From NCBI GenBank assembly GCA_019752815.1, contig JAIELQ010000007.1, positions 115,728 through 179,727 of the forward strand: a DNA stretch of 64,000 nt, in the 5' to 3' direction. Below, piece after piece: positions 46,630-64,000 of this stretch (positions are counted from its first letter, which is position 1; the number at the start of each line of letters is the position of its first letter). The notes below the pieces were generated by a model that was given only the letters and a program-made list of their open reading frames with translations, had not been told where the DNA came from and made no database searches. The translations under genes were made by a program, and so were the position numbers. Source of the DNA: Patescibacteria group bacterium (GTDB lineage Bacteria; Patescibacteriota; Minisyncoccia; Phycocordibacterales; UBA918).

Positions 46630-46632
46630 TCT

Positions 46633-46965: not shown

Positions 46966-46987
46966 TCTGCCGTATAATTATTTGTAT

Positions 46988-47602: not shown

Positions 47603-47608
47603 GTCACC

Positions 47609-47637
47609 TTGACTTAAACCCTGTTAATGAGTAATAT
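47609..47637 (+). promoter_or_regulatory. Probable promoter of tRNA-Ala
   Basis: TTGACT (47609-47614), 17-nt spacer, TAATAT (47632-47637), ~35 nt upstream of the tRNA. Confidence 0.5.
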
Positions 47638-47672
47638 ACTTGTCACATTTGCCCAGGCAGATATGACAACAA

Positions 47673-47745
47673 GGGCCCGTAGCTCACTTGGTAGAGCGCC
47701 TCATTTGCACTGAGGAGGCAGGGAGTTCGAATCTTCTCGGGTCCA
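47673..47745 (+). tRNA. tRNA-Ala (anticodon TGC)
   Basis: Cloverleaf: acceptor GGGCCCG/CGGGTCC with a G3:U70 wobble (the Ala identity element). D-arm GCTC-ACTTGGTA-GAGC. Anticodon stem CCTCA/TGAGG with loop TTTGCAC. T-loop TTCGAAT. Discriminator A. CCA not encoded. Confidence 0.9.
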
Positions 47746-49354
47746 CTATACGCAACTTTTCAGGAGTTGCATCAGAAGCTAGGTTGTAAATACACGATAA
47801 AACGGGGTTCGAAAAGCCCTCGTTTTTCGTATATACAAGACCCTCTGGAAAGACTAAGTTTTGGAACCCGCGACGGAACTCTGGTGTTAAATCAAGCCAG
47901 AGACGAGAAATACTTTGTACAGCAACGTTAAAGTACTCCTTTTCAAATTCTGCCTCAAGGAGATCTATCGCGTCTTCGTGCAATGTGATTTTTGTCGTGA
48001 GTAGTTCCAATTCTAGTGCTGCGAGGCGCTCCTTTACCATTTCTGGTGTGTAGAGTCCTGATTCAGCTAACTCGTAGATTTTAAACCGTTTTGCCTTTAC
48101 TTCGTTTACCTTTGATTCTTGATCTACGTATTCTTGTCGTAGCTTACCGAGTAGTTCAGTTTGTCGTAGTGCAATCACAGCATTCATGTACTCAAGTAGA
48201 TCTGGTGATGGTGTGATGCGATTAAGTAGCTGCATGAAATCAGCTTCAAGGGTTGCTTTACGGATTACTTTATTCTTTAGCGGACACCCTTTCTGATAGC
48301 AGTGATAGCTGGGATAGTAATTGCCACTGCGACCACGAGACGAACTAGCGGTCATTTGCTGATCACAGACACTACAGCGAACTAGCCGACGGAGTGGAAA
48401 GTCCTCGTTGTCTCGATTTTTGATGATTTTCTTATTGCTTCGTTTACCATCGCGCACTGCAATAATTTCATCCAGTTCTTCCTGAGAGATCATTGGAGTG
48501 TGTTTTCCTGGATAGTATTTGTCGTCATCTGCACAATACAGCTTGCCTGCATAATAATCGAGATAGTGATACAGAATTCGATCAATTAATTGTGGTGAAG
48601 CAAGTATGCCAGCTATTTCAGCAAAGTTGTTTGCCTCGAAGTAGTTACGCATGTCCGTTGCGGTAAATTGTTGCAGGCGATAGCTACGCAGTGCCTCTTG
48701 AACCATAGGAAATAGCACAGGGTGAATTGGGTCAGGAGTAGTCTTTTTGGCACCATTCTTTTTGTTTTGTTTGTTGATATAACCGACAGGAGGCTTATAC
48801 GGATAAATGCCCTCACGAATTCGATCTTGAAGGCCGTTGCGACAACGTAACGCTCGGATGTTGTTATCAAATTCAGCAAAGCCCGCAAGCATTGTTTCCA
48901 TAAGCTTACCCATTGGTCCGTCATTAATAGCCTCAGTGACAGAGTGAAGGGTGGTCCCGTATTTAATGAGAGCGGCTTTAACTGCGAAGTGATCTTCAGT
49001 GTTACGAGCAAAACGGTCAATCTTCCATACTACGAACGCAGCAATCTGTCCCTTATGAACGCGACAGTAATCAATCGCACTTAGTAACTGTTTACGGTCT
49101 GTGGTTTTAGCACTTTCGCCTTTTTCTATGAATGGATCACACGCAAGTATGAGTCCTTGTTTATCAAGATAATCCTTACAAGCGCGCACCTGTGCATCCA
49201 GTGAGGTGCCATCAATTTGTTCTACGTCACTAACACGCACATAGACGATAGCCAGGTTTGTATTAGCTTTGAGTAATTTCTTTGTTTTTTTATTTCGAGT
49301 GTATAACTTAGTTTTCATGATTATTGTGTTTAATAAGCCAAAAGGCGGTCCCAA
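47684..49354 (-). CDS. Large serine recombinase (integrase)
   Basis: N-terminal resolvase catalytic domain (AIVYVRVSDVEQ...S..R), recombinase domain, Zn-ribbon CSVCDQQM..YHCYQKGC, C-terminal coiled-coil. The last 20 codons are the antisense of the tRNA-Ala gene. Start could be the second Met (MKTKLYT, 49318). Confidence 0.8.
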   Translation of the reverse strand: MGPPFGLLNTIIMKTKLYTRNKKTKKLLKANTNLAIVYVRVSDVEQIDGTSLDAQVRACKDYLDKQGLILACDPFIEKGESAKTTDRKQLLSAIDYCRVHKGQIAAFVVWKIDRFARNTEDHFAVKAALIKYGTTLHSVTEAINDGPMGKLMETMLAGFAEFDNNIRALRCRNGLQDRIREGIYPYKPPVGYINKQNKKNGAKKTTPDPIHPVLFPMVQEALRSYRLQQFTATDMRNYFEANNFAEIAGILASPQLIDRILYHYLDYYAGKLYCADDDKYYPGKHTPMISQEELDEIIAVRDGKRSNKKIIKNRDNEDFPLRRLVRCSVCDQQMTASSSRGRSGNYYPSYHCYQKGCPLKNKVIRKATLEADFMQLLNRITPSPDLLEYMNAVIALRQTELLGKLRQEYVDQESKVNEVKAKRFKIYELAESGLYTPEMVKERLAALELELLTTKITLHEDAIDLLEAEFEKEYFNVAVQSISRLWLDLTPEFRRGFQNLVFPEGLVYTKNEGFSNPVLSCIYNLASDATPEKLRIVDPRRFELPASSVQMRRSTK

Positions 49355-49466
49355 CCCGTATCACACCACCTTGGGCAGTATGAATAAGTCAGTGACCGCC
49401 CATTGGACGCGAGGCAATATACCTCTAACTAGTTGATGTGATAAATGATTGATTGAATAATAGCAC

Positions 49467-49928
49467 CTATTTCTTTTTCAGTCGGCTGTGGATTATTTTG
49501 TGCTTATTTTCTAACGATTTAGTAGCCTTGGTTGCTGTTGCACCCTTACTTTTTCGCAGCTTCAATCCAACTTCTTCAATGAAGGATTCTTTTGAGGTGA
49601 CTATATTCGAGCTTAAATGAAGAGTAATTTTATGTTCTCCCAAAGCAGTGAAGAATTGTGTTGATTTAGTTTCATCACGAAATAGTCTGTTATATGAAGT
49701 AACCACTAGTGCACCCAATGTCTCTGTACGGATGAGAGCGAGTAAGTCAACAAGACCAGGCCTCCGTTTATCAATTGAAGAGCCCACATCAATAAAGCAG
49801 TCCACAATAGTTAGGTCGTTTGTCTTACAGTATGCGATACACTCCTTTATCTGATTACTAATATGTTCTATTGGTTTCTCTGAACTGGAGCGAATATATA
49901 GAGCAGTTTTTACTAATTTCTTTTTCAT
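49467..49928 (-). CDS. Small serine recombinase / resolvase catalytic-domain protein
   Basis: ALYIRSSSEK (catalytic Ser context) .. VVTSYNRLFRD. 153 aa, no obvious C-terminal HTH. Confidence 0.5.
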   Translation of the reverse strand: MKKKLVKTALYIRSSSEKPIEHISNQIKECIAYCKTNDLTIVDCFIDVGSSIDKRRPGLVDLLALIRTETLGALVVTSYNRLFRDETKSTQFFTALGEHKITLHLSSNIVTSKESFIEEVGLKLRKSKGATATKATKSLENKHKIIHSRLKKK

Positions 49929-49938
49929 AACAATTTAA

Positions 49939-51735
49939 TTAAAACGGTATACCGTCATCTTCAATGTTTGTAACTACCTCCTCATCGTCATTTTCTTCTT
50001 CACTTACATCAGGTTCGGGACGGTCATCAATGAGTCGAAACATATGTTTACCGTTATCCTTTACCTCAACTGTAATCACTCCATCTTTTTTGAGTTTCGC
50101 TAAGGCAGTGTTCATAGCATGATCACCAATACTAAGTGCGCTTTTAATGTCAGTTCTTGACACCGCCTCGTCGATTCCTGAAAGCATGTGTACAATCTTT
50201 TCGATATTTTCCTGCGTATTTTCCTCCTTTGAAGTATCAACACCCAGATAGGAAAAGTTGATGCTGTTATTTTCACCCATTTGGAAACCAGCTTTGAATG
50301 GCGGTAGTTCTGGCTGAACACGAAGCTTCAACATGCGCACCATAAGATTTTCTGTCCTGCGTTCAATCGCTAAGTGGAAATCAAGTGCGTTAAAGATATC
50401 GGTTGATCCTCGCAGGCTGCCGCTCCCAGCTTTTCGTGTGTGCCCCTGGTCTTTCTTGTGGTGGTGAATAAAGATCACTGAACGCTCTGGAGCAACTAAG
50501 CTTCCTAGAGCTTTCATAACCTGTCGCATCTCTGTAGCGCTATTTTCGTCACGTCCATGCAAACGAACCATTGAGTCCAAGATTATTAGTCGTGGCTTCA
50601 ATGTATCGACATACTTCAACAACTTTGTTCGATGCGCTTCTCGGTCAATCTGCAGTCCTGTATGAGAAAGGAAAACAATATCGTCATGAGCTTCGATATC
50701 CATATTTCGGAATCGTTGTTCAATTATGCGTCGATTATTCTCCTCATCGATCACTAACACTTTACCTGCCGTAGTTCCAAAGTGTCCGAGATACGGAGCC
50801 CCTGTGGCAACAGCTTGTGATAAAGCCAGTGTCATAAACGATTTGTACGAGTTTGATTCTCCCGTAATAGCACCAAGACAACCAAGTGGAATAAGGTCTT
50901 TAGCTACCCATTGAATCGGAGGGAAGTCTTCAGCGTACAGTTCGCGTAGCGTAAATGGCTTTAATACAAATTCTTCAATATCACGCTGTTCAAGTTCGGT
51001 AAGTCGCAACTTTGTAATGCTATTGAATACCTTGCGTAGTTCCACATCTGGTAATGGTTCTGATAGAGCGGTCACGTTCCAAGTAACTACCTCAGGCCAA
51101 GCAACTTTATCCCAACGTTCTGGTCCCATTCGACTAACAATTTCACCTATCTGTTTTGCTGCCGCTTCGTTTCGCATCCCAACAGGAATCAACTCTGATG
51201 TTGCTTCCACAGGCTTATTTTTGAACGTAGAGAGCACTTCAAGCAGTCCTCCTGGGTATATTGGCAAATTAGTAATATCTGGCGCATTTTCACTTGTAAT
51301 CCCATGCCAGCTATATGCTCCTTTACTACTCACGCTTGGAGGCGCAACCACATAGCCGCCATCACCCCGAATATCTGTAAGTTCTGCAATCCGTGTGGCA
51401 TTCTTGGTTACTTTCCCTGGATACTGGTAGTAGAAGTGATATCCGCCACCACCAGTTTTTACAGTAAGCGTTGATGGGTACATTGAGCTATCTCCACCCG
51501 CTTCAACATCTACTACCACTAAGTTTGATATCAGTCCTGTCACAATACCTATCTGAGCCCTCGGAAACTGAGTAAGCCAGGCGTCTACTTCATCATCTGT
51601 CGCAATCCGTTTACTAAATTCACCCCATTTGATGAGTGGCTCTTTATTTTTGTTGAGGGGTATCACTGACCAACCCATTTTCCGATACTTCTTGAATGCT
51701 TCCGCCACTGTTACTGCTGTTACGTAATCGTTCAT
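49939..51735 (-). CDS. Bifunctional primase-polymerase (Prim-Pol) / P-loop helicase replication protein
   Basis: N-terminus WSVIPLNKNKEPLIKWGEF..GIVTG..VVDVE resembles Prim-Pol. Central RecA/DnaB-like P-loop GAITGESNSYKSF and Walker B VLVIDEEN. C-terminal wHTH-like region. Confidence 0.65.
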   Translation of the reverse strand: MNDYVTAVTVAEAFKKYRKMGWSVIPLNKNKEPLIKWGEFSKRIATDDEVDAWLTQFPRAQIGIVTGLISNLVVVDVEAGGDSSMYPSTLTVKTGGGGYHFYYQYPGKVTKNATRIAELTDIRGDGGYVVAPPSVSSKGAYSWHGITSENAPDITNLPIYPGGLLEVLSTFKNKPVEATSELIPVGMRNEAAAKQIGEIVSRMGPERWDKVAWPEVVTWNVTALSEPLPDVELRKVFNSITKLRLTELEQRDIEEFVLKPFTLRELYAEDFPPIQWVAKDLIPLGCLGAITGESNSYKSFMTLALSQAVATGAPYLGHFGTTAGKVLVIDEENNRRIIEQRFRNMDIEAHDDIVFLSHTGLQIDREAHRTKLLKYVDTLKPRLIILDSMVRLHGRDENSATEMRQVMKALGSLVAPERSVIFIHHHKKDQGHTRKAGSGSLRGSTDIFNALDFHLAIERRTENLMVRMLKLRVQPELPPFKAGFQMGENNSINFSYLGVDTSKEENTQENIEKIVHMLSGIDEAVSRTDIKSALSIGDHAMNTALAKLKKDGVITVEVKDNGKHMFRLIDDRPEPDVSEEENDDEEVVTNIEDDGIPF

Positions 51736-51874
51736 ATTCTTCGCCGTGACGCTTCATGAATCCACGAACAACAATGTCTGCCTGTATATCTACTAGGTCA
51801 CGAACTTTTATCAATTCATGTTCAGCTAGACCGAGATGACCCAGCATTTGTCTTGTGACTTCAATTGGTGTCAT
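51644..51874 (-). CDS. Small hypothetical protein (possible excisionase/regulator). Overlaps the 5' end of the listed primase ORF.
   Basis: 76-aa ORF overlapping the listed start of the primase ORF (49939..51735) by 92 nt in another frame. Confidence 0.3.
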   Translation of the reverse strand: MTPIEVTRQMLGHLGLAEHELIKVRDLVDIQADIVVRGFMKRHGEEYERLRNSSNSGGSIQEVSENGLVSDTPQQK

Positions 51875-51933
51875 TTGTTTAGATTAACTATTAATAAGAG
51901 CATGGAGGCCTCCGTGTCTCTTACTTTAATTAT

Positions 51934-52809
51934 CTAGTTAGGTTGGTGAGTCACCTGCGTGTCACCATTTTGGGTGCCGTAATTGCGATAGTATTCTCGG
52001 TTCTTGACTGAAATTAGCTTGTCATCGGTTGGAACCATTCTTTCAACTCGTTCATTAATACCCCTTACACTGTCTCGTATGGCTCTAATTGAAGTCTGAC
52101 GTTGTTCTTCTGCCCAGTCTAAAATTAAAATGTCAGCTAAGACATCATCAGGTACTGATTCACCACTTGGATATTTAAACAGCTCAGTTAAAATTTGGGC
52201 ATCATATAATCCAGTAAACTTAAGCTTCTCCTCATTGATTTGAAGTATTTTACTTTCAACGTTGTAACAAATTGAACAGTCAGCCAGTCCTACTTTCACA
52301 TGCTGGTTATTTCGAGTTCTGTCACAGAGCTTCTGCACATTTGCTAACATTTGAGTCACCTCTGCAGGCATGTCAGGTGGGATCCCTGATTCTGGGTAAC
52401 AGGAGTTGTAGTAGTGCTTTAGCGGTCCTGCAAGCTTACCCATGAATTGAGAAGGACTGATGTTCGGATGAAGTGTAGTAGCTTCTGCAACTGCTGCTGA
52501 AATTGAGCTATACGGTTCTGTCGCTACCTCCTCAAGCGGATATTCTAAAAATAACTCATCTGTTTTATTGATGTTAGCCAGATTTCGATATTTTGCTAAC
52601 AAGTTTTTAAGCGATGGTTGTGCCTCGGTGCTTCTGGTGTAGATAACCTCAGCTTCAAAGCACGCACTGAGACCGTAGTCTTCTGCGAGTTCTACTAAAT
52701 TTGAATATGCAGTAAATAAGTTGACCGTAGAGCGGAGAGCAGCAAATTCAGATAATGAGTCGTTAGGCATAACCAAATCGTACCAGAATTGCGCCTTTTT
52801 ACTACCCAA
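51934..52809 (-). CDS. Hypothetical protein (first gene of leftward module)
   Basis: 291-aa ORF, no recognisable motifs. Confidence 0.45.
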   Translation of the reverse strand: MGSKKAQFWYDLVMPNDSLSEFAALRSTVNLFTAYSNLVELAEDYGLSACFEAEVIYTRSTEAQPSLKNLLAKYRNLANINKTDELFLEYPLEEVATEPYSSISAAVAEATTLHPNISPSQFMGKLAGPLKHYYNSCYPESGIPPDMPAEVTQMLANVQKLCDRTRNNQHVKVGLADCSICYNVESKILQINEEKLKFTGLYDAQILTELFKYPSGESVPDDVLADILILDWAEEQRQTSIRAIRDSVRGINERVERMVPTDDKLISVKNREYYRNYGTQNGDTQVTHQPN

Positions 52810-53090
52810 ATTACAAGACTAGTCTACATCCTGAAAAATAGGAAAATTTTTTATGGCACCCCTCACTTTTTGGGTCCAGATTATTTCCAAACCACCCATA
52901 CCACCAAAAATTGCCTGACATACCGATACATACCCAGTGTCTTATATCTCATAACGTTTCCGAAGTACTCCCCCATACCACATTCACGACACAAGGTTCT
53001 TATGACTTGGGCTATGAAGGAGTAAATTATTTATAGCCATACTTCTTCGCACTACCTACACGGCTTAGTGCGGCGTTAACTACTATCACT

Positions 53091-53432
53091 ATGAAGAAAG
53101 TAAAAGAAGTAATAGAAGAAAGACCTATCAGTACTTACAAGGGTTCAGAGAAGACATTGGAGCTTGTTAAGGAGGCAATTAAAGAGCATCCGCAACTTGG
53201 TCCTAAATACCTTGTAGATTTTGACCCTTATTATTCGGCAATGACTTACAACTCTTGGAAGCGACAGGGTTATGTTCCTGCTAAAGGTTCAATCGGTATT
53301 AAGAGTGTGACGTTCATTGAGTCGCTAGATGAGCAAACAGGTAAGAAGAGTATGATTCCTCGGACAGTGATTCTATTCCATCGTTCGCAGGTTCAAGCAC
53401 TCAGCCCATTTAAACAAAAACAAACAGCATGA
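53091..53432 (+). CDS. Possible ArdC-N-like ssDNA-binding (antirestriction-type) domain protein
   Basis: YYSAMTYNSWKRQGYVPAKGSIGIKSVTF loosely matches the ArdC_N pattern (Y..P.W.TFKQA..LGG.V.KGEKG..IV). Weak assignment. Confidence 0.35.
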   Translation: MKKVKEVIEERPISTYKGSEKTLELVKEAIKEHPQLGPKYLVDFDPYYSAMTYNSWKRQGYVPAKGSIGIKSVTFIESLDEQTGKKSMIPRTVILFHRSQVQALSPFKQKQTA

Positions 53433-53594
53433 GTCGCAAACTAACTGTTGTGTGTGAACGGAGAGCCAAAGATGAGCCTTGCATCAGAATTACCGATAAG
53501 CGTCTTGCTGCAGCTGGCTTCTCACTGGGCGATCTCATTTCAGTAACCATCAAACCAAAGACAGTAATTATCAAACGACTTAACAAATTAAATT

Positions 53595-54164
53595 ATGAAT
53601 AACATCGCAACTCCATACAAACGACGACTACAAGGTCATTATCCACCTGTACGCGTGATTGTCTCCGAACCAAAACCAATCGCCGCACACCCAATAAAGA
53701 GTGAGATAGCAAAGAACCTCGGCACATTTTCCTTTATTGCGACCTTCGAAGAGGATCACGAGGCAATTGCTGCATTCAAGAACGAAGGGCTGATTGCCTA
53801 CAGATGCATTCTTAAGACAGCTGATGGTCAGCGTACACTAGGGATCGGACATGGAATCAACGTGCTCTCAGCAGAAAATCGATACTTAAGTAAAAGTGTG
53901 AAGTGGGCGCATTCAGGCGCATTTATAGCTGCAGTTACCAATGCAGTGAAATTTCCCACACTTGACGGTGTCCCGGTCTCAGATTTCGGAATGGGTAACA
54001 ATGAAATTGCCTCAGCATTTATGGCAACTGAAAAGCAAAAATCCTATTTAAAAGAGTTAATCATGGGCTTGCCTGAAGAAGACGGTCGCGAGGAGTTGAT
54101 TAATAATCTCGACTCGATGACAAAAGAAGATGCTAGCGAATTAATACAACAATTGAAGAATTAA
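53595..54164 (+). CDS. Hypothetical protein
   Basis: 189-aa ORF. Confidence 0.4.
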   Translation: MNNIATPYKRRLQGHYPPVRVIVSEPKPIAAHPIKSEIAKNLGTFSFIATFEEDHEAIAAFKNEGLIAYRCILKTADGQRTLGIGHGINVLSAENRYLSKSVKWAHSGAFIAAVTNAVKFPTLDGVPVSDFGMGNNEIASAFMATEKQKSYLKELIMGLPEEDGREELINNLDSMTKEDASELIQQLKN

Positions 54165-54249
54165 CATTAAAGCCGTGTTTCCTCAGCGAGACACGGCTTT
54201 TTTTGTTCTAATGCATTAAAAATGCTGTTTAAATGATATTATATTAAGC

Positions 54250-55590
54250 ATGATTAGTGAACTCGACACCATAAAAAATACAGTAACCAAAACTTTTACA
54301 GACTTTGGTATTTCTGTGGATGTAATAAAGGCGTATGAGGGTATCAACCATATTCACCTACATCTGGTCCCAACGAAGCCGGTTCGCATGCATGAGATTA
54401 GGGGTTATCTTGATGACTTACGTTTTGCTCTTGGTCGTCATGTAGTAAAGATAGAGGCACCGGTTAAAAATAAAAATGAAGTGAAGATTAGCGTTCTGAA
54501 AGACAAGCGAGGAACAACAGTTAATTGGGCTACATTACAGGAATGTTTGTTACCAGATAGTTCGCCATTAACTGTACCGTTCGGCATTACTGAAGAAAAT
54601 AAAACGCTTCTAGTTGATATTTTTACACTCCCGCATCTACTCGTTGGTGGCAGAATGATTACCGGCAAAACAAACTTTGTACACGGTCTCATAAATTCAC
54701 TTATATTACGTAACTGTCCAGATATACTTCGGTTGATTTTAGTTGATCCAAAACAAGAAGGTATGCCTTTGTATAAGGGACTGCCACATCTCCTTACGCC
54801 CCCAATCGACAGCTCTGAAAAGACAATACTCGCACTTAAGTGGGCCTGTAAAGAAATGGAACGTCGTTACGACATACTTGAGGCGAGTGACTCAGAGGAC
54901 ATTGCAGACTATCACCAAAAAGTATCTGCAGTAGATAAGCGTTCAGAACCAATGCCATACATTGTGTTCGTCATCGATGAACTGGCCGAAGTCATGGCCG
55001 ATTATGGAGATGAGGCAGAAAAGCTTATGCGAAGACTTGCTGTGATGGCTCGTGGCGCTGGTATTCATATGATCCTCACTACAGCTAGCAACGAACCCCG
55101 GATATTGCGAGGTACACTGCGTGCAAACATTTTTAGTGCTTTAAGCTTCGGTGCTGATTCACAAGCTGCCTCTGAGGCGTTTATATATCAAGCCGGTGCA
55201 GAAGAACTCATAGGCAGAGGAGTCGGTCTGTTTATTTCATTTGATTATACAACTGCAATTGAACTGCAAACTGGTTTAATTGATGAAAAGGAAATTAAGG
55301 AAAACGTTTTGAAGGTAAAACGTCGACACGGAGTGGTGGACGACAATAATATTGATTTAAAGACCCTCGCCGACTACAATCTCACTATTTTTGCCTTTGA
55401 TGAAGAGGATGATTTGTACGAGGACGCCAAGAAAGCGGTGATAGAAGCGGGTAAAGCGTCCACTTCATACATTCAGCGTAAGCTACGTATCGGTTATTCG
55501 CGAGCAGCTAGATTAATCGATCTTCTCGAAGAACGAGGCGTGATCGGTCCAGCTGATGGTGCGTCACCACGAGAAATATTGGAAGATTAA
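54250..55590 (+). CDS. FtsK/SpoIIIE-family DNA translocase (TraB/Tcp-like)
   Basis: Walker A GGRMITGKTN, Walker B VFVIDELAEVM. C-terminal FtsK-gamma-like winged helix YIQRKLRIGYSRAARLIDLLEERGVIGP. Confidence 0.75.
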   Translation: MISELDTIKNTVTKTFTDFGISVDVIKAYEGINHIHLHLVPTKPVRMHEIRGYLDDLRFALGRHVVKIEAPVKNKNEVKISVLKDKRGTTVNWATLQECLLPDSSPLTVPFGITEENKTLLVDIFTLPHLLVGGRMITGKTNFVHGLINSLILRNCPDILRLILVDPKQEGMPLYKGLPHLLTPPIDSSEKTILALKWACKEMERRYDILEASDSEDIADYHQKVSAVDKRSEPMPYIVFVIDELAEVMADYGDEAEKLMRRLAVMARGAGIHMILTTASNEPRILRGTLRANIFSALSFGADSQAASEAFIYQAGAEELIGRGVGLFISFDYTTAIELQTGLIDEKEIKENVLKVKRRHGVVDDNNIDLKTLADYNLTIFAFDEEDDLYEDAKKAVIEAGKASTSYIQRKLRIGYSRAARLIDLLEERGVIGPADGASPREILED

Positions 55591-55598
55591 TAAAATAG

Positions 55599-56186
55599 AT
55601 GAATACCAGAATTTCTAGTTACGACGAACAAATACACCGGCACCGATTTGCCTCATGGTGTGCTTCGCGTGCGGCTTCAGTAAGAAATAAATGCATGTTT
55701 TCAGCAAAAACAGGGCAAGAAATTATTGAAGCATCTAAACTTTCGCAAGTTTCATTTGGTTGGGAAAATTTACCTTTTTCAAATCAAAAGGAGTTTGATA
55801 CTTGGCACTCTAGAATGCGCGAGTCTATTTGTCTCACAGCTAGCAAAAATTTAAATGTTAATGGAAAATGCACACACGGTATAGCAGCAAAACTCATTAA
55901 TATTTACTTAAAGACAATTTTTGTTGTGGGTGTACACGGTAAATTGAATTCAAGTCAAACCACACTATTAAATCTTATTCATCCTCCAATTGACCGAACC
56001 TTACTTAATGAATTGGCTAAAAATAACATAGGAGGTTATAGATCCGAATGGAGAAAATTTATAAAAATCGGGTTTAGTAGTTTTACGTCAACGCAATACG
56101 AAAATGTTATTGAACTAGTTATAAAGTCCAATAATGGGAACCCATTATGGATGATTGAAGAGCATTTTAAAGGTTATCAAAAATGA
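55599..56186 (+). CDS. Hypothetical protein
   Basis: 195-aa ORF, no motifs. Confidence 0.4.
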   Translation: MNTRISSYDEQIHRHRFASWCASRAASVRNKCMFSAKTGQEIIEASKLSQVSFGWENLPFSNQKEFDTWHSRMRESICLTASKNLNVNGKCTHGIAAKLINIYLKTIFVVGVHGKLNSSQTTLLNLIHPPIDRTLLNELAKNNIGGYRSEWRKFIKIGFSSFTSTQYENVIELVIKSNNGNPLWMIEEHFKGYQK

Positions 56187-56596
56187 ACATCTATCTGGAC
56201 ATTGACGGCACGATGATTCATGAAGATCATTGGGATACAGAGAATCAAGCCGCTGCAGGTCTAGCTGAGTTCATTATTGCCCTGAGGCCACACAACACAT
56301 ATTGGCTTACAACACACTGCCGAGATGGTAATCCAGAACGACCGCGAGAAATCATGAAGCGTTTTGTACCACCAGAGCTACACGCAGATATAGACCGCAT
56401 CAAGCCAACTGTTTGGGATACGATGAAAACACAAGGTATTGATTGGTCCCGAGACTTTATTTGGTTTGATAATGACATCTCACCGTTTGAATGGGAGAAA
56501 ATTGAACAAGGCACTGAAGGTCAGCAGGCTATTGAAGTGAACTTGAAACTGAACCCGAAGCAATTACTTGAGATAGCGAGGGACGTCCTTAGTTAG
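56183..56596 (+). CDS. Small HAD-superfamily-like protein
   Basis: N-terminal YLDIDGTMI (DxDGT motif I). Only 137 aa. Confidence 0.4.
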   Translation: MNIYLDIDGTMIHEDHWDTENQAAAGLAEFIIALRPHNTYWLTTHCRDGNPERPREIMKRFVPPELHADIDRIKPTVWDTMKTQGIDWSRDFIWFDNDISPFEWEKIEQGTEGQQAIEVNLKLNPKQLLEIARDVLS

Positions 56597-56597
56597 T

Positions 56598-57659
56598 ATG
56601 GAAACTCATCTCCGTTCAAAGCAGTACTACGAAGATCGCTATGATCGAATGACCGTAGAGGACTGCCGACGGAGTGAAAGCTTTTTCTTGAGGAGTACCG
56701 ATGGTGACACTGATAATATTGAAGAAAAACTAAAGGCTGGTATCCGAGAAGTAGCTTGGGAAATCAAGAGAGTTCACCTAACCTTAGACTGGTACAGCAA
56801 GCGCGAATCTACTATCAATGAGTGGATGCAGAAGGACCAAGCGCGGGACACGATGCTTGCTGTAGCACAACCGCCAAGAAACGTATTCTGTTCGACGTGT
56901 GCTGAGAGAATGAATGAGGACAGTCGCACTACTTGGGATAGAGGTAGTAAGGAGCAGGTATTGTTTTTCATGCGCTGCGTCGCTGGTCACCTGCCAATGA
57001 AAGGTGTATTTGAAGATGGTGTCGAGCTGGTTATAGAAGATAAACTTTGTCCAAAATGTAGCGCTGTATTGAACAGCAGTCGCTTACCGAGTAAAAAGGG
57101 TGCGATTAAAACAAAAATATCCTGTTCGGCTTGTAATTTCGAAGAAGTAGATGAATTTGCATTAAGCAGTAATGAACCGGCAGAGGATCCAAGTTATGAG
57201 GCAGACCGACTACGCTTCTGTCTTACTGGTGAAAGTTTAAAGAAGGCACAAGATGAGGCATTTAGGATGGAGCAAATGAGCCGTTTGGTAGAGGGGTGGA
57301 AGCACGAGGAGGAACATCAGGCAGAGTACAAAGCAGTATCCGAACTAGAAAAATTGACTATACCGCAAGTAAAACAGCGAATTAGTGACCTTATCGAAGG
57401 AAAGAACTACTTAAATCTAGTATTTGAAAAACCGAGTATTGAGCGGTACGTCTCACTAGAATTCAGTGTGGAAGAAATGAAAACGGACAATCAGCGGATG
57501 AGCATCAGCAATCTCCAAAAGTTGTTAAAAATGGCATTTGCGGACACGAATTGGCGCCTAATGACTGAGGGTATTAGTTATCGCTTGGGGCTCCTGACAG
57601 GCAGAATTCGGGCTTATGAATCAAAGGAAGATCTACTCAAACTGGTAACGAAAAAGTAG
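56598..57659 (+). CDS. Hypothetical Zn-ribbon-containing protein
   Basis: Cys pairs CSTC .. C..H, CPKC, CSAC. Helical C-terminal half. Confidence 0.4.
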   Translation: METHLRSKQYYEDRYDRMTVEDCRRSESFFLRSTDGDTDNIEEKLKAGIREVAWEIKRVHLTLDWYSKRESTINEWMQKDQARDTMLAVAQPPRNVFCSTCAERMNEDSRTTWDRGSKEQVLFFMRCVAGHLPMKGVFEDGVELVIEDKLCPKCSAVLNSSRLPSKKGAIKTKISCSACNFEEVDEFALSSNEPAEDPSYEADRLRFCLTGESLKKAQDEAFRMEQMSRLVEGWKHEEEHQAEYKAVSELEKLTIPQVKQRISDLIEGKNYLNLVFEKPSIERYVSLEFSVEEMKTDNQRMSISNLQKLLKMAFADTNWRLMTEGISYRLGLLTGRIRAYESKEDLLKLVTKK

Positions 57660-57693
57660 TTATTTGACACATATACTTATAACACAGTGATAA

Positions 57694-58725
57694 TTGAGGA
57701 AACCCATCCAAAATGCTAATCTGTATAGACATATGGCCTTTATTTTTAGTGGTGGTAAACGGTATAATTTAATTCCTTTTGATACTGAAGCGGAGTTTGA
57801 AAAGGCTGTCATCGAACATGCTGTTGAATTGTTTGGTCCCAACACGTTTTACCTTGATGCTAAAAGGTTAATCGCCCGGAGGGGTGAATGGAAAGGTGGT
57901 ATTCCAGATGGTTTTCTCATTGATTTATCAGACCCAACTGAACCGCATCTCTATTTTGTTGAAAACGAACTAGCTTCTCATGATGTGTATAGGCACGTAG
58001 CAGAGCAAGTAGCTCGTTTTTTGGCCATTGCAGTTACCGATGCTATCCAACTACGTGCCATTCTTGCTAATCACATTCGAGCCAACAAAGAATTACTAGC
58101 ACAAATTGAAACGCACATTAAAGAGGCACAATTTCATAACCTTGATAATCTTCTTAATGTACTCACAGAGAAGCCAGCACGTGTTGTCGTAGTGATTGAC
58201 GAAGAGACTGAGGATCTTAACCAAGTACTCTCGGTTTTTCAACGTCGGCCAGACGTGGCAGTGCTGCAGCGATTTACAAGCGACAGTGAGTCTATGTATT
58301 GGTGCCAGCCAATGCGTGATGATGCTGAAGTGCTTGTGACTAATGGACAGACAACAGCCGCTCCAGCACTCCGAGAGTTTGACACAATAGTTTGTCCAGC
58401 ACATAAGGAAGGTTTTGAATCTGCATTCATCAAGCAAGATGCTTGGTGGGCTATCAGACTTTCACAAGAAGCACGCGAACGCATAAATTACTTAGCGATT
58501 TATCAAAAAGCACCCATTGGAGCAGTGACACACGTGGCTGAAATTGAACGGATTGAGCCGTATAAGAACTCCGGCAAGTTTATTGTTTACGTCAAGAATA
58601 AGCGAACAATCGGTCCGATTAAACTTGATGGCGGAGGAAAGCGTGGCATTGCACCGCAAGGACCACGATTTACCACAATAGAAAAGCTCAAGCAAGCAAA
58701 AAAACTAAGTGACCTTTGGAAGTAA
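57694..58725 (+). CDS. Restriction-endonuclease-fold (PD-(D/E)xK-like) protein with a C-terminal beta-barrel-like domain
   Basis: GIPDGFLIDLSDPTEPHLYFVENELASHD resembles the G.PD..-D..-(E/V)E.K core of Mrr/NucS/DUF4263-type nucleases (Lys position not conserved). The C-terminal ~90 aa (VTHVAEIERIEPYKNSGKFIVYVKNKRTIGPIKL) resemble EVE/PUA-like modules. Both assignments are tentative. Confidence 0.4.
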   Translation: MRKPIQNANLYRHMAFIFSGGKRYNLIPFDTEAEFEKAVIEHAVELFGPNTFYLDAKRLIARRGEWKGGIPDGFLIDLSDPTEPHLYFVENELASHDVYRHVAEQVARFLAIAVTDAIQLRAILANHIRANKELLAQIETHIKEAQFHNLDNLLNVLTEKPARVVVVIDEETEDLNQVLSVFQRRPDVAVLQRFTSDSESMYWCQPMRDDAEVLVTNGQTTAAPALREFDTIVCPAHKEGFESAFIKQDAWWAIRLSQEARERINYLAIYQKAPIGAVTHVAEIERIEPYKNSGKFIVYVKNKRTIGPIKLDGGGKRGIAPQGPRFTTIEKLKQAKKLSDLWK

Positions 58726-58736
58726 TTAATATTTTT

Positions 58737-60632
58737 ATGAAAGAGCAAAACATCACAAAAAACATCACCTCTCCGCAAGTTACGCTCGAGGCGCTCCAGC
58801 GTGATTTTGCGCATTGTTTTGATAAGGATGGGGATTTTGACATTGAAAAGTTCAAACGTGAAATTGCTGGCGCTGAGGTGAATTTTTCTAAGGAAAGCTA
58901 CGGCATGGACTGGCTAGGAAAGAGCTATGCGCGAGTACGAGCTACCGATCCGGCCACTACGTTACTCAAGGAAGATGTTGCTTGGAATAGTAAAGAAGAA
59001 AACAAAAACTCAGAGAATCTCCTCATCAAGGGCGACAACCTCGAGGTCCTCAAGCATTTATCTAACGCCTATCACGAACAGATAAAAATGATTTATATCG
59101 ACCCACCATACAACACGGGTACTGATGGGTTTGTGTACGAAGACGACCGCAAGTTTACTCCAGAAGAATTTGCTGAGTTAGCTGGCGTTGACCTAGAACA
59201 AGCCAAGCGTATTTTGGACTTTGTAGATAGTAAGAGTAACTCGCACAGTGCATGGCTTTCGTTTATGTACCCGCGACTTTATATCGCACGTCAGTTGCTA
59301 AAAGACGATGGGGTAATCTTCGTGAGTATTGATGACAATGAGGTAGCGCAGTTGAAGATTTTAATGAACGAGGTTTTTGGAGAAACAAATTTCATTGCGC
59401 ATTTAATATGGAAAAACAAGAAGGGTGGTGGTAATGATTCAAAATATATAGCTATAGAACATGAATCAATTTTAGTATTTGCTAAATCAAAAAATGATCT
59501 TGAGAGACTATTTCATAGATACACTGATGAATACAAAAAGCGATATAAGGAAGAAGACGAGGACGGTTTATTCTTTTGGGATACTTTTAAACGCAAATCA
59601 GGAAAGCAGTACTATTCAATAAAATGTCCAGATGGTTCCACACTCGAGAAGGATGAGTTTGGTAACCCAATAAGTTGGCTGCGATCAGAATCCACCTTTA
59701 AGAAAGACCTTAAACGAGGTGAAATTAGAATTGTTAAAATTGGAGACCAGTGGTCAGTACAGTTCAAGCAAAGACTTCCTGAAGGAAAAAAGCCGCGGAG
59801 CATCTTAGATTCTTTTGGAACTACTAGTGACGGTTCAGATGAGTGTTTTGACTTATTTAAAAAACACATTTTTAGTAACCCAAAGCCGACTAGCCTGATC
59901 TCTCATATGTTAGATATCGTTTCTGAGTCAAACGACATTATCCTTGACTTCTTTGGGGGCTCTGGCACTACTGCTGATGCAGTAATGCGACTCAATACAG
60001 AAGATAGCGGGAGTCGAAAATTTTTAGTTGTACAAATCAGTGAAAAAATTGACCCAATAAAAAATAAAGTTGCATACGATTTTGTAAAAAGCGAACTTAA
60101 AATCAAAGAACCGAATATCTTTGACATTACCAAAGAACGACTTGTACGCGCAGCTAAAAAAATAAAAGAAGAACATAAAGATAGTGAACATATCGCTAGC
60201 GTTGATTTTGGCTTCAAAATATTTGAAACCGTACCTCAATGGGATGGGTATGTCGATGAGCCAACGGAATACGATAACAATCTAAAAATATTTGATGTAG
60301 CAAAGTTAAAAGACAACGATATCGCGACACTCCTCACCACTTGGAAAACTTACGATAGCATCCCACTCACGACATCACTTACAGAGGTTGATCTTGGAGG
60401 ATACACAGGCTACTACAACGATAATAAGTTGTACCTTGTTCATGCTGGTTTTACTGCAAAGCACCTCACTGCGTTGCTGAAGATGATCGATACAGACACC
60501 ACATTCAGTCCTGCAACAATCATTATCTTCGGGTATCACTTTGACAGTGCTCGTATGCGTGAACTTGCTGAGAACGTAAAGAGCTACGCAAACAAGAAAA
60601 GTATCGATATCGAGTGCATCACACGCTACTAG
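58737..60632 (+). CDS. Type III restriction-modification system methyltransferase (Mod)
   Basis: DPPY motif IYIDPPYNTG precedes FxGxG motif LDFFGGSGTTADAV (beta-class N6/N4 MTase order). Central target-recognition region. Start placed at MKEQNITKN to avoid overlap. Confidence 0.8.
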   Translation: MKEQNITKNITSPQVTLEALQRDFAHCFDKDGDFDIEKFKREIAGAEVNFSKESYGMDWLGKSYARVRATDPATTLLKEDVAWNSKEENKNSENLLIKGDNLEVLKHLSNAYHEQIKMIYIDPPYNTGTDGFVYEDDRKFTPEEFAELAGVDLEQAKRILDFVDSKSNSHSAWLSFMYPRLYIARQLLKDDGVIFVSIDDNEVAQLKILMNEVFGETNFIAHLIWKNKKGGGNDSKYIAIEHESILVFAKSKNDLERLFHRYTDEYKKRYKEEDEDGLFFWDTFKRKSGKQYYSIKCPDGSTLEKDEFGNPISWLRSESTFKKDLKRGEIRIVKIGDQWSVQFKQRLPEGKKPRSILDSFGTTSDGSDECFDLFKKHIFSNPKPTSLISHMLDIVSESNDIILDFFGGSGTTADAVMRLNTEDSGSRKFLVVQISEKIDPIKNKVAYDFVKSELKIKEPNIFDITKERLVRAAKKIKEEHKDSEHIASVDFGFKIFETVPQWDGYVDEPTEYDNNLKIFDVAKLKDNDIATLLTTWKTYDSIPLTTSLTEVDLGGYTGYYNDNKLYLVHAGFTAKHLTALLKMIDTDTTFSPATIIIFGYHFDSARMRELAENVKSYANKKSIDIECITRY

Positions 60633-60638
60633 CATAAT

Positions 60639-63563
60639 ATGGCAGGCTTTAATTTTGAGAAAAATCTAGAACATCAATCACACGCTGTGGCAGCGACAGT
60701 GGGGGTATTTGATGGTGTAGCTGTGGAGCAAGCAATTGGTGTATCAGCTCAGTTTGCAAACCCACGCTTTACTGCCACATCACATGAAATAGCAAATAAT
60801 GTCGCGGCTATGCGGACACGTTTTGCTGTATCTGATGGCACGGTTGACGGCACCAGCACCATTATCGATATCATGATGGAGACAGGTACCGGTAAGACGT
60901 ATACGTACACCAAGACTATGTTCGAAATGAACAAACTCTTTGGTATCTTTAAATTTGTGATTGTGGTCCCGACACTGCCGATTAAAGCCGGTACTATTAA
61001 CTTTTTACGCTCACAGAGCACTCGAGAGCACTTCAAAGAACAGTACGGTAAGCAACTGCAGCTTCATATCGTCGAGAGTCAAAAATCTGGCAAAAGTAAA
61101 AAATCAGTCATTCCGACAGCAGTACAGAGTTTTGTGGGTGCCGGTAGCTACGAACGCAATCATATTCAAGTGCTCGTTATTAATGCTGGTATGGTCAACT
61201 CGGACACTATGCAGAAGCGCTTTGATACGAGTCTCTTTGACCAACACGCAGTGCCATTTGATGCTATAGCTGCAACGCGGCCAATCATGATTATTGATGA
61301 ACCGCATAAGTTTGCTAAAGACAATAAAACTTGGAGTAATCTTGAGCGTATGCGTCCACAGTACACCATACGCTACGGTGCTACCTTCCCAGAGACGGAA
61401 CTAAAGAAGAAAAACTCACTCGGCAAAACGGTGAAAGTGTCAGTTAAGGATTATCATAATTTGGTCTATACCCTCACTGCTGTTGATTCTTTTAATAAGA
61501 ACCTCGTGAAGGGCGTGATCGGTCACGTAGCAGAGTTTGAAGCAGGAAGGAATGCACTTGTAAAACTCATTTCGCTTACTGGGACAGAGGCTAAATTTGA
61601 ACTGACTGAGGGTAACAGAAAGTCTACTCGTACCCTAGGAAAGAAAGACACTCTCTCCAAAGTGCATGTAGCGATGGAAGGACTTACCATTGAAAACATG
61701 AATAAGTCGTGTGTAGTGCTCTCAAACGGACTCGAACTCAAGAAAGGCGACAAGCTAAATCCATACTCATATGCTGAAACACTACAAGAGTCGATGATCA
61801 AAAAAGCAGTGAAGAATCATTTTGAGTTGGAATATGACTTGCTCCAGCGTGATACACGTATCAAGCCACTGACACTCTTTTTCATTGATAATATTGATGA
61901 GTATCGTGGTAAAGATGGCTACATAAGGAAAACTGTTGAAAAACATATTAAAGCGGAAGCAAAGCGTCTTTTAACCCAATCATGTACGCCTGCATACAAA
62001 ACTTTTCTCGAGGCAACTCTAACCAGTATTTCTGATTCACACGGCGGTTATTTCTCACAAGATAATACCGATAGTGACGAAAAAATAGAAAAGGAAGTTA
62101 ACGAGATCCTTCACGACAAGGAGGAAATTCTTCGTATTGACAATACTCGTCGTTTCATTTTTTCAAAGTGGACTCTGCGCGAAGGCTGGGACAATCCAAA
62201 CGTATTTCAGATATGCAAGCTCCGCAGTAGTGGCTCGGATATTTCAAAACTGCAGGAAGTAGGTCGTGGTTTGCGTCTACCTGTTAATGAGTACGGAAAT
62301 CGGGAGAAGGACGAGCAGTTCTTCCTCCACTATTTTGTCGACTTTACAGAAAATGATTTTGTAAATCAATTAGTCGCTGAAATTAATAAAAAATCTGGTG
62401 CAATATCTCGTGCTGCTGTGTATGAACGACTAACTGACGAGATGGTCGCACAAATAGTAGAGAAATACAGTGTTACTGAAGAATCACTTCTTGAGACGCT
62501 CGATAAAAACAACGTAATTACTCGTAGCAATCAATTCAAAGATGGAGGACTTGCTTATATTCAATCTAACTATAGCCTCATCTTTGAAGGTGTAGACAGC
62601 AACAAGATTCGTAAAGCGAACGATGTGAAGAAGCGTGTGACAGTACGAACAGAGAAGTACACAGCCCTTCAAGAGCTCTGGGAAAAACTGAATGAAAAAG
62701 TAATATTGGAGTACAAGATTGACGATGAAGAAAAATTTAAGACGCTGTTTGTTAACTTCTTAAAGCAGTCGGCTGCTGCGTTTAAAGCTGATAGTGTTCG
62801 TAGTCGAATAGAACGAGTAGTCATTGAGGATGGGCAAGCAGTACGACAGAGCGAAGTAGGTCTTAAAGATTCTGAACTAACCTCACTCACGACCATGAAT
62901 TATGGTGCATTCTTGCGCCAACTCGGTGAAGCCTTACACATGAACATTGCAACACTGCACGGATCGTTCAAGACAGCAAAAATAAACCCGACGCCGTTCT
63001 TGAACCAGACAACCATCCGAATTATTAAGCAAAAGTTTGATGCGTTCCTTCTATATAACGCGATTGATGCTTTTACCATCGAGTATCAGCGAGTCACCAA
63101 TACAATTCATCCAACCAAGTTCACAAACAAAGAGGGTAAAGTTGTACGTGATGCTGCCTCTGCTGACGTGGGTGTTATGAGTAGCACCGACAGAGTCGCT
63201 CCCAACTACTTCTTTAACGAACTATTTTTTGATAGTGAACTAGAAAAACAGAATATCATCACAAACATCACTGAAGTGCTTGTTTTCACAAAGATTCCGA
63301 AGAACTCAATAAAAATTCCCGTAGCAGGTGGTAAAAGTTACTCCCCAGACTTTGCGTACGTACTTAATTTTAAGGACGGACAAAAAAAGCTCTACTTCAT
63401 AGTTGAAACAAAAAACACAACTGAGGAGGGCTTGCGTGATGAAGAGCGAGCCAAAATTAAACATGCAGAGAAGTTTTTTGGTGGAAAGGTAAAGATTAAG
63501 TTTAAGACGCAATTTGAACAAGACAAAATAGTTGATCTGATACAACAACTTACTGTAAGTTAA
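60639..63563 (+). CDS. Type III restriction enzyme Res subunit (SF2 helicase + PD-(D/E)xK endonuclease)
   Basis: Walker A METGTGKTYT, DEAH-box IIDEPHKF, SF2 motif VI QEVGRGLR. C-terminal SPDFAYVL...IVETKNT nuclease motif. Confidence 0.8.
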   Translation: MAGFNFEKNLEHQSHAVAATVGVFDGVAVEQAIGVSAQFANPRFTATSHEIANNVAAMRTRFAVSDGTVDGTSTIIDIMMETGTGKTYTYTKTMFEMNKLFGIFKFVIVVPTLPIKAGTINFLRSQSTREHFKEQYGKQLQLHIVESQKSGKSKKSVIPTAVQSFVGAGSYERNHIQVLVINAGMVNSDTMQKRFDTSLFDQHAVPFDAIAATRPIMIIDEPHKFAKDNKTWSNLERMRPQYTIRYGATFPETELKKKNSLGKTVKVSVKDYHNLVYTLTAVDSFNKNLVKGVIGHVAEFEAGRNALVKLISLTGTEAKFELTEGNRKSTRTLGKKDTLSKVHVAMEGLTIENMNKSCVVLSNGLELKKGDKLNPYSYAETLQESMIKKAVKNHFELEYDLLQRDTRIKPLTLFFIDNIDEYRGKDGYIRKTVEKHIKAEAKRLLTQSCTPAYKTFLEATLTSISDSHGGYFSQDNTDSDEKIEKEVNEILHDKEEILRIDNTRRFIFSKWTLREGWDNPNVFQICKLRSSGSDISKLQEVGRGLRLPVNEYGNREKDEQFFLHYFVDFTENDFVNQLVAEINKKSGAISRAAVYERLTDEMVAQIVEKYSVTEESLLETLDKNNVITRSNQFKDGGLAYIQSNYSLIFEGVDSNKIRKANDVKKRVTVRTEKYTALQELWEKLNEKVILEYKIDDEEKFKTLFVNFLKQSAAAFKADSVRSRIERVVIEDGQAVRQSEVGLKDSELTSLTTMNYGAFLRQLGEALHMNIATLHGSFKTAKINPTPFLNQTTIRIIKQKFDAFLLYNAIDAFTIEYQRVTNTIHPTKFTNKEGKVVRDAASADVGVMSSTDRVAPNYFFNELFFDSELEKQNIITNITEVLVFTKIPKNSIKIPVAGGKSYSPDFAYVLNFKDGQKKLYFIVETKNTTEEGLRDEERAKIKHAEKFFGGKVKIKFKTQFEQDKIVDLIQQLTVS

Positions 63564-63572
63564 TAATTTATT

Positions 63573-64000
63573 GTGGTGTTATCAAAATCAAATTATCTTA
63601 CATTCCTCAAGCATCCGGCATGGTTGTGGTTGATTGCGCATGAACCCGACAAAATTCCTAAACATGATGCTGACACACTAGCTATCTTTTCTGCAGGACA
63701 TCGCTTTGAAGAGTATGCAGAACATTTATTTATTGATGGATATGCGCTTGGGTATAACGTGAGCGGACACTTTGACTGGAAACTTTACCAATCGTTACCA
63801 GAGCGCACCGCTGAGGCTCTACAAGGAGAACACAAGCTATTGTTCCAAGGTCGGATAGAGGTAGACGGGCTTACCTGTATTTTTGATGTATTGGAACGTA
63901 CCGCTATGGGCACGTTTAATCTATATGAAATTAAATCAAGTAGTAGTGCTAAGCGAGAGCATGAATACGACTTGGCTTTCCAGACGTACGTGCTAGAAAA
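63573..64000 (+). CDS. PD-(D/E)xK-family nuclease-like protein (Cas4/DUF2779-like), 3' partial
   Basis: Frame open from GTG 63573 to the window end. IFDVLER .. FNLYEIKSS fits a D..(E)xK nuclease core. No stop before 64000. Confidence 0.4.
   Translation, partial: MVLSKSNYLTFLKHPAWLWLIAHEPDKIPKHDADTLAIFSAGHRFEEYAEHLFIDGYALGYNVSGHFDWKLYQSLPERTAEALQGEHKLLFQGRIEVDGLTCIFDVLERTAMGTFNLYEIKSSSSAKREHEYDLAFQTYVLE

Follow-up and report, generated by a model that had tools for sequence, protein, structure and literature searches.

A tRNA-Ala-integrated, probably plasmid-like element of Patescibacteria with an anchor-less FtsK and variable defense cargo

The sequence analyzed here, called the window throughout, is a stretch of 64,000 nt (positions 1-64,000) from a Patescibacteria group bacterium, a member of the Candidate Phyla Radiation (CPR). 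From 47,747 to 64,000, immediately past a tRNA-Ala gene, the window appears to hold the left 16.3 kb of a CPR-specific mobile element that is integrated, plasmid-like, self-replicating and defense-carrying, and that has captured a soluble FtsK. We give this reading, which rests on sequence comparison, a probability of about 0.7. Judged from its relatives, the complete element is probably ~18-20 kb in size. Full-text searching of the literature found no description of such an element family.

The same backbone recurs in CPR contigs: a serine integrase, a Prim-Pol/helicase replication protein, a divergent region, an anchor-less FtsK, a 137-aa partner and a DUF2779/Cas4-like nuclease. Loci in CPR and metagenome contigs that were compared with the window bear L-numbers. 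The window, L002, L011 and L012 make up subfamily A; L009, L010 and L021 make up subfamily B. An earlier note on this DNA had described an element with a backbone like that of the integrative and conjugative elements of actinomycetes (AICEs), and the parts it named, the tRNA-Ala, the serine recombinase, a resolvase-type protein, the Prim-Pol replicase, the divergent region, an FtsK with a gamma domain and the defense cargo, were all recovered where it had placed them. The features on which the argument turns are the following.

47673-47746, + strand: tRNA-Ala(TGC), the integration target and the sole tRNA in the window (ARAGORN, Rfam)
~47742-47749: attL (left attachment site) junction, at or just past the tRNA-Ala 3' end (homology to L120/L122 ends at 47749)
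47684-49354, - strand: large serine recombinase (integrase), 556 aa (Pfam Resolvase PF00239, E 6.6e-31; Zn_ribbon_recom PF13408, E 3.3e-6; phrog_95 integrase, 2.5e-65)
49939-51735, - strand: replication protein of 598 aa, Prim-Pol (archaeo-eukaryotic primase, AEP) plus AAA_25 helicase type (PF09250, E 2.7e-25; PF13481, E 2.2e-27; PHROG primase/helicase families)
52810-53090, no strand: divergent intergenic control region, 281 bp (map of open reading frames (ORFs) and sequence)
54250-55590, + strand: anchor-less FtsK alpha-beta-gamma translocase (FtsK-short), 446 aa, the hallmark gene of the family (Pfam FtsK_alpha, FtsK_SpoIIIE, FtsK_gamma)
56183-56596, + strand: 137-aa conserved partner gene 3' of FtsK (60-83% identical in L001, L002, L009, L011 and L012)
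63582-64000, + strand: DUF2779/Cas4-like protein, N-terminus, cut by the window end (82% amino acid identity to the L001 and 66% to the L009 DUF2779 protein)

The UvrA protein of the window is 100% identical to a protein labeled 'Patescibacteria group bacterium' and 85-87% identical to those of the next named relatives, Pacebacteria/Paceibacteria. By this sequence evidence the host is a Paceibacteria-like Patescibacterium, with nothing to connect it to Saccharibacteria, and the CPR-like host of the earlier note is borne out. Its further suggestion, an association with Actinobacteria and DNA exchange with hosts, found no such backing, the close homologs of the element proteins being encoded in CPR or metagenome contigs in every case. 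A link to Actinobacteria or to known plasmids was rejected by plasmid-database searches, in which the best FtsK matches were of the chromosomal type at 32-34% identity and the Prim-Pol matches were partial, at no more than 31%. Element composition is mildly off that of the host (GC 0.415 vs 0.44; tetranucleotide correlation 0.82 vs 0.89-0.95).

Results

Integration at the 3' end of tRNA-Ala

The genes before tRNA-Ala, encoding UvrA, UvrC, Ddl, a pterin dehydratase and a membrane protein, all lie on the + strand, and the strand switches at the tRNA. The loci L120 and L122, whose UvrA is 98% identical in protein and ~80% in nucleotides, are syntenic with window positions 31174-47749, and their homology to the window breaks no more than 3 nt from the end of tRNA-Ala. 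Past the tRNA they read AATTGCTGACCGCAATACG..., and the genes there are unrelated to those of the window (an EcoRI-like methylase and GmrSD are two of them), with no integrase, replicase or FtsK. These two loci answer the proposal of the earlier note to look for an empty tRNA-Ala site in relatives: the element block is absent and other genes are found there. In L120 these variable genes, EcoRI-like methylase and GmrSD/HNH among them, occupy 17101-22514. The tRNA-Ala site is a hotspot for defense genes.

A more distant syntenic genome, L001, holds at the same tRNA-Ala a derivative that retains FtsK, the 137-aa gene and DUF2779, the integrase and replicase being gone. L002 starts inside a tRNA-Ala-like 3' end and has the gene order of the window: integrase, Prim-Pol, a small ORF, a 250-aa ORF, a divergent gap, homologs of the 113-, 57- and 189-aa proteins, FtsK, homologs of the 137- and 353-aa proteins, cargo and DUF2779. 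L011 and L012 are further fragments of subfamily A. The window, L001 and L002 all part ways straight after GGTCCAC. The element is integrated at the extreme 3' end of tRNA-Ala, as the earlier note had claimed from the letters alone; the end of synteny at 47749 marks the boundary, and attL, attR (right attachment site) and attP (the site on the element) are present in elements that share its backbone.

The right end of this copy lies outside the window. The DUF2779/Cas4-like gene is cut at 64000, so the element continues past the window end, and since the window contains no second occurrence of the 19-mer that ends tRNA-Ala, or of the host sequence to be expected past the tRNA, attR must lie beyond 64000. 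The earlier note had suggested that attR would be defined by the tRNA 3' end repeated in direct orientation, and this marker can mislead: in L120, which is free of the element, a sequence 180 bp downstream already repeats the tRNA-Ala end perfectly over 19 nt, so that such a repeat does not define attR, and the attachment sites of the family share only 4 bp.

Downstream of the tRNA genes that serve as attachment sites lies a conserved module of ~180 bp (L120 16505-16703, L122 6575-6773, L001 8566-8760, L021 19557-19759, L125 18395-18580). It consists, in order, of a hairpin, an inverted copy of the last ~20 nt of the tRNA, the GC-rich motif GCCGGGGCCCCTCTGGGCCGGCG and the tRNA 3' end once more, in direct orientation. 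These copies covary with tRNA identity (Ala, Gln, His), and their spacing is constant, at 62-64 nt and 180-181 nt. In an intergenic array at window positions 11440-11830, a 3' end of the tRNA-Gln type, TTCGAGTCCCTGTCAGGCAGC, occurs three times in direct and twice in inverted orientation, and the GC-rich motif of the module is present as a perfect copy at 11714-11736. No intact tRNA gene lies near this array, its neighbors are not mobile-element genes, and no Rfam family scores above threshold; it folds far better than shuffled sequences (z = -11.7).

Attachment sites of subfamily B at tRNA-Gln

The direct evidence that the family moves comes from subfamily B. Compared with the window, subfamily B is 24% identical in the integrase, 43% in the Prim-Pol domain and ~60% in FtsK and the 137-aa protein. 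L009 (16.2 kb) and L021 contain complete copies at tRNA-Gln(TTG), each with attL and attR; integration targets thus vary among members, between tRNA-Ala and tRNA-Gln. The L009 element measures 15.7 kb between junctions and encodes methylase/ResIII, NYN, DUF2779 and ClpS proteins. That of L021 is ~15.1 kb long, carries a type I restriction-modification system and has its integrase split into two ORFs. In L010 the right-end sequence (ClpS plus a 51-aa ORF) is fused directly to the integrase end, which is an attP-type joint.

When these sites are aligned, attP shares a conserved P arm with both attR sites, as far as ...GGCTGCCAGC, and a conserved P' arm with both attL sites, from CAGCCAA... onward. 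The overlap among L009, L010 and L021 is a 4-bp core, CAGC, and the attP and attB (host) sites are ...GGCTGCCAGCCAATCTTC... x ...GTCGGGCAGCTTGAG..., respectively. An overlap of CAGC only, flanked by conserved arms, is by sequence the hallmark of serine-integrase action on the final bases of a tRNA; because no more than this core is shared, the integrase would excise and integrate the element without damaging the tRNA.

The window integrase ORF extends 63 nt into tRNA-Ala (47684-47746), and its final 21 codons are the tRNA antisense. The frame likewise crosses the recombination point in L021 (4195-4257), L125 (5940-5972) and L010 (1002-1095). In integrated copies the last integrase codons are tRNA antisense, and in the attP form of L010 the frame runs on through ~31 other codons, so the C-terminal tail would differ between the integrated and excised states. 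The start codon of the window integrase is likely the ATG at 49318. The integrase alignment is invariant at R40, S42 and further residues. NCBIfam matches the window protein to XisF and CcrB; Pfam gave no PF07508 match in it, although that domain is found in the L010 and L125 integrases.

FtsK-short resembles a chromosomal motor

FtsK-short matches the FtsK_SpoIIIE domain PF01580 (E 2.3e-35) and aligns over its full length with the FtsK C-terminal motor structures 2IUS/2IUT (E 1e-58); the Walker A and B residues are invariant within its family. In NCBIfam it scores 197 bits with the FtsK model and 28.7 bits with plasmid_TraB NF041214, vs a cut-off of 800, and the TraB-type translocase of the earlier note is not sustained. 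A terminator lies upstream of its gene; the protein begins with the alpha domain and has neither a membrane domain of four transmembrane helices (4TM) nor a linker. A scan with 19-residue Kyte-Doolittle windows, in which a host control protein scores 2.42, found no transmembrane helix in the 16 element proteins of the visible 16.3 kb, FtsK-short included. A search for repeats like the AICE transfer locus clt or the FtsK-orienting polar sequences (KOPS), for which the motif was not known beforehand, found no clustered or over-represented polar 8-mers in the window element and four relatives.

The closest relatives of FtsK-short are proteins of 443-460 aa that form a clade and are 52-98% identical to it. 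CPR FtsKs, short and long, follow at 38-46% (typically ~42%), the long 4TM ones of ~730 aa being 41-44% identical; CPR chromosomal FtsKs are 700-820 aa long and have PF13491. In a neighbor-joining tree the long 4TM FtsKs group in a single tight clade, and the short FtsKs are diverse and long-branched. The gamma-domain patterns [IV]GYSRAARL and D[LM]LEERGV[IV] matched more than 578 FtsK relatives in metagenome contigs, mostly chromosomal FtsKs. Among 64 CPR FtsK loci found with these patterns nearly all proteins are 700-820 aa; the short ones of L012 (445 aa) and L021 (466 aa) sit with element genes, and L013 has the only further short one that is complete (483 aa), near which no element genes were seen. 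A scan of genome contigs with FtsK-short yielded only relatives of 30-39% identity. Taken together, the FtsK model score, the end-to-end motor alignment, the absence of a transmembrane helix and the wide distribution of the gamma motifs indicate that FtsK-short is a captured motor of the host type and not a TraB protein.

Intact anchor-less FtsK also heads islands of defense genes at L001 (10001-19400), L117 (10001-17422, a Kaiserbacteria genome) and L118 (10001-21440), whose defense-type genes include MazG-like, SLFN-helicase/S24, Fic, NYN, Bro-N, DndB and type I restriction-modification genes. Stand-alone FtsK-gamma winged-helix proteins exist as well, such as one of 115 aa in the L002 cargo (9944-10291), and many IMG/VR contigs (L093-L116) encode stretches 53-57% identical to the gamma domain of the window.

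Remaining genes and cargo

The other features of the visible part are listed from left to right.

49467-49928, - strand: 153-aa protein, resolvase catalytic domain alone (Pfam Resolvase, E 6.8e-16; weak IS607-like match)
51644-51874, - strand: small conserved 76-aa ORF upstream of the replicase gene (51% identity to a 63-aa ORF of L002)
51934-52809, - strand: 291-aa protein, first gene of the leftward operon, fast evolving (no family match; weak homology to the L002 and L011 proteins that occupy this position)
53091-53432, + strand: 113-aa protein, possibly ArdC-N-like and single-stranded DNA (ssDNA)-binding (weak; Pfam ArdcN, E 0.1; ArdC 6I89, E 0.19, the top match of a profile search against PDB chains)
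53429-53602, + strand: AbrB/SymE-like 57-aa protein (Pfam SymE_toxin, E 1.8e-4, under the cut-off; ~70% identical ORF in L002)
53595-54164, + strand: 189-aa conserved hypothetical protein with a possible core fold like a double-stranded RNA-binding domain (dsRBD) or Rad52 (weak matches; model with a predicted local distance difference test score (pLDDT) of 70.7)
54169-54200, + strand: strong terminator-like hairpin, 13-bp stem plus T run, splitting the 113/57/189-aa unit from the FtsK gene
55599-56186, + strand: 195-aa hypothetical protein, window-specific cargo (no homolog in related loci, no family match)
56598-57659, + strand: 353-aa conserved Cys-rich hypothetical protein (45-55% identity in L002, L011 and L012; no family match)
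57694-58725, + strand: 343-aa hypothetical protein, window-specific cargo (no homolog in related loci, no family match)
58716-60632, + strand: type III methyltransferase Mod (Pfam N6_N4_Mtase, T3RM_EcoP15I_C; PADLOC MTase_III, 4e-202)
60639-63563, + strand: type III restriction enzyme Res (Pfam ResIII, RE_endonuc; PADLOC REase_III, 1070 bits)

On the leftward side, the replicase is 48% identical to its L002 counterpart. The 153-aa protein shows no DNA-binding domain in Pfam and has no homolog at the same position in relatives, which encode unrelated proteins of 160-190 aa between integrase and replicase; those of L009, L010 and L021 (161/162 aa) are at least 68% identical to one another. The 153-aa resolvase-like gene, being unique to the window copy, was rejected as a conserved integrase partner. 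The divergent region contains no repeats and has no Rfam match.

On the rightward side, the ArdC-N-like label that the earlier note gave to the 113-aa protein is plausible: the same domain was matched twice, and both matches were below threshold. A single-sequence AlphaFold2 model of this protein (pLDDT 40) was unusable. The 57-aa AbrB/SymE-like ORF had been overlooked in the earlier note. The 113/57/189-aa unit also occurs outside FtsK elements, with homologs in a serine-integrase element at tRNA-His (L124-L129). This CPR element (e.g. L125 5898-18394) encodes a serine integrase, an HU-like protein and homologs of the 113-aa and 189-aa proteins, and neither FtsK nor Prim-Pol. In L126 a second serine-integrase element (14567-16207) sits exactly at the right boundary of the tRNA-His element, a tandem accretion.

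The 137-aa protein is the most constant neighbor of FtsK-short. Motifs like those of the haloacid dehalogenase (HAD) family (DIDGT, FDND) were recognized in it by eye only, without database support, and sequence and profile searches of the PDB returned nothing significant for it or for the 189-aa protein. Mod and Res together constitute a type III restriction-modification system (PADLOC). The DUF2779 homolog of L009 matches both DUF2779 and Cas_Cas4 in Pfam. Cargo consists of restriction or defense genes in every copy and differs between copies. Elsewhere in the window, positions 13001-15000, over a Na/Ca exchanger gene, have the lowest G+C (0.386-0.389) and a strong GC skew of 0.19-0.21; mobile-element genes were not found there.

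Comparison with known systems

Large serine integrases of phages as well as of integrative conjugative elements (ICEs), for example phiC31, Bxb1, A118, TnpX and CcrB, are the class with which the integrase can be compared. Like them it combines a resolvase catalytic domain, a zinc-ribbon recombinase domain and a coiled coil, and the attP/attB core (CAGC, in subfamily B) is very short; unlike them it targets the extreme 3' end of a tRNA, with an integrase frame that crosses the crossover point. No recombination directionality factor was identified. Serine-recombinase integration at tRNAs is called rare in PMC3218068, which cites mycobacterial AICEs at tRNA-Leu and phage phiRSM1 at tRNA-Ser. These resemble the present element, by description, in their serine-recombinase integration at a tRNA, but their hosts are unrelated and phiRSM1 is a filamentous phage.

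The motor itself is closest to the C-terminal part of chromosomal FtsK (Escherichia coli and Pseudomonas aeruginosa; 2IUS/2IUT/2IUU, gamma 2J5O/2VE8), with which its alpha, beta and gamma domains align full length, and it has the gamma motif [IV]GYSRAARL in common with CPR FtsKs. It differs from chromosomal FtsK in lacking the 4TM domain and linker, in its location on a mobile element and in evolving fast relative to the long clade of the host.

The operational screen for AICEs combines Int-Tyr or Int-Ser with RepSA, RepAM or Prim-Pol and with PF01580 (Ghinet 2011, PMC3218068), and the element contains an Int-Ser, a Prim-Pol and a single PF01580 protein. Its tRNA integration and size also fit the AICEs of te Poele et al. 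2008 (PMC2440964). Integration at a tRNA 3' end, a size of 10-20 kb, an integrase, a replication protein (Prim-Pol in many AICEs), one FtsK/SpoIIIE ATPase and an excised replicative form, predicted for the present element, are features alike in both. In contrast, AICEs use a Tra protein of the TraB family that is membrane associated and reads clt repeats, whereas the motor here is an anchor-less, chromosomal-type FtsK alpha-beta-gamma protein; Spd, Kor and Pif genes are absent, the helicase domain is fused to the Prim-Pol, and the host is a member of the Patescibacteria and not of the Actinomycetales, to which AICEs are confined (PMC3218068). The AICE-like backbone of the earlier note therefore stands as a set of modules, and what AICE transfer depends on, a TraB-family protein, membrane association with Spd proteins and an actinomycete host, is missing. 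The likeness is useful as architecture and fails as membership; it reflects a shared logic of modules, not ancestry. Pfam and NCBIfam found no genes of ICEs that use a type IV secretion system (T4SS), namely relaxase, VirB4 or coupling protein, either in what the window shows of the element or in L009 and L021, which are complete.

Discussion

Several explanations other than a self-replicating, plasmid-like element with a captured FtsK can be put forward. In one, the excised element is pumped between cells as double-stranded DNA (dsDNA) by an FtsK-like analog of TraB, as in AICE conjugation. The combination of modules beside a tRNA that fits the published AICE screen, the C-terminal winged helix and the similar size range speak for it, but we regard it as rather unlikely: the TraB score is far below its cut-off, FtsK-short has no membrane segment and the visible 16 kb encodes no transmembrane or Spd-like protein. 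No clustered 8-mer repeats were found, the presence of the gamma-domain patterns in so many metagenome FtsKs argues against an element-specific reader of clt, and AICEs are restricted to another group of hosts. Another explanation makes FtsK-short a part or regulator of the defense cargo, scanning or expelling foreign DNA, on what would then be a mobile defense island. Defense genes follow FtsK-short in every context, the protein is intact in the integrase-less L001, L117 and L118, where its neighbors include MazG-like, SLFN-helicase/S24, DndB and type I restriction-modification genes, and PADLOC finds similarity of its motor domain to SspH and mad8. Those PADLOC matches are generic to the motor domain, however, the neighboring defense genes vary from copy to copy, so there is no fixed partner system, and both its alpha and its gamma domain are complete and of the chromosomal FtsK type. 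A defense role of this kind is unlikely.

An integrase and a Prim-Pol/helicase beside a tRNA, with divergent control, are also the core of phage-inducible chromosomal islands (PICIs) and P4-type satellites, which share with the element a size of 10-20 kb; the element could accordingly be a phage satellite or cryptic prophage mobilized by a helper phage, and its several conserved proteins of unknown function leave room for this. We consider it very improbable. PHROGs returned only integrase, primase/helicase and FtsK-like families, with no capsid, terminase, portal, tail or packaging matches; no packaging or capsid-remodeling genes were detected here, an FtsK is present and there is no helper-phage evidence. 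IMG/VR has no relatives of the integrase or replicase, and its FtsK relatives are distant or gamma-only. It is also improbable that the window copy is an immobilized relic at a variable tRNA-Ala hotspot, vertically inherited and no longer excising. The degraded derivative of L001 at the same tRNA-Ala, the split integrase of L021 and the unseen attR of the window would suit such a history, but the backbone ORFs of the window are all full length relative to their homologs, and the closely related L120 and L122 lack the element block.

Some observations weigh against the interpretation that we prefer, a mobile, self-replicating element with a captured FtsK. The window copy shows attL alone, and attR, and hence the excision competence of this copy, is outside the view. 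The attachment core was mapped in subfamily B only, the integrase of which is 24% identical to that of the window. L010 has no terminal overlap that would indicate circularity, as is also true of L002, L009 and L011, and its attP junction could stem from a tandem array instead of a free circle; the end ORFs of L010 may be compatible with one broken GmrSD-like gene. Intact FtsK-short occurs in islands with neither integrase nor replicase within 10 kb (L001, L117, L118), and its role may therefore be independent of mobility, for example in defense. Finally, five conserved element proteins are without assigned function.

We present a hypothetical model for the life cycle of the element. The serine integrase would excise it to a circle, which would then be replicated by the Prim-Pol/AAA_25 protein. 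FtsK-short would be a paralog captured from a CPR chromosomal FtsK with loss of the membrane domain, and would most likely act on dsDNA in the cytoplasm or at the division site and not as a membrane pore, segregating or resolving copies of the element, possibly together with host Xer. Spread between cells would probably depend on host functions (competence or another apparatus) and not on a self-encoded TraB-like channel. The restriction-modification cargo may both defend the host and stabilize the element. A bolder idea, which we hold to be improbable, is that integrative plasmids throughout the Patescibacteria use the anchor-less FtsK and partners yet to be recognized as a one-protein mover of dsDNA between cells, or between episymbiont and host. 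If true, such one-protein FtsK transfer would be the first AICE-like, T4SS-independent conjugation outside the Actinobacteria.

The mobile elements of CPR/Patescibacteria are poorly described, and this family raises the question of what use a soluble, complete FtsK motor is to an element of 15-20 kb. It also points to tRNA 3' ends as hotspots for the exchange of defense genes in reduced CPR genomes. CPR organisms are almost intractable genetically, and the family contains parts from which tools for their genetics could be developed: a serine integrase whose attP/attB at a tRNA are mapped, and a Prim-Pol replicon.

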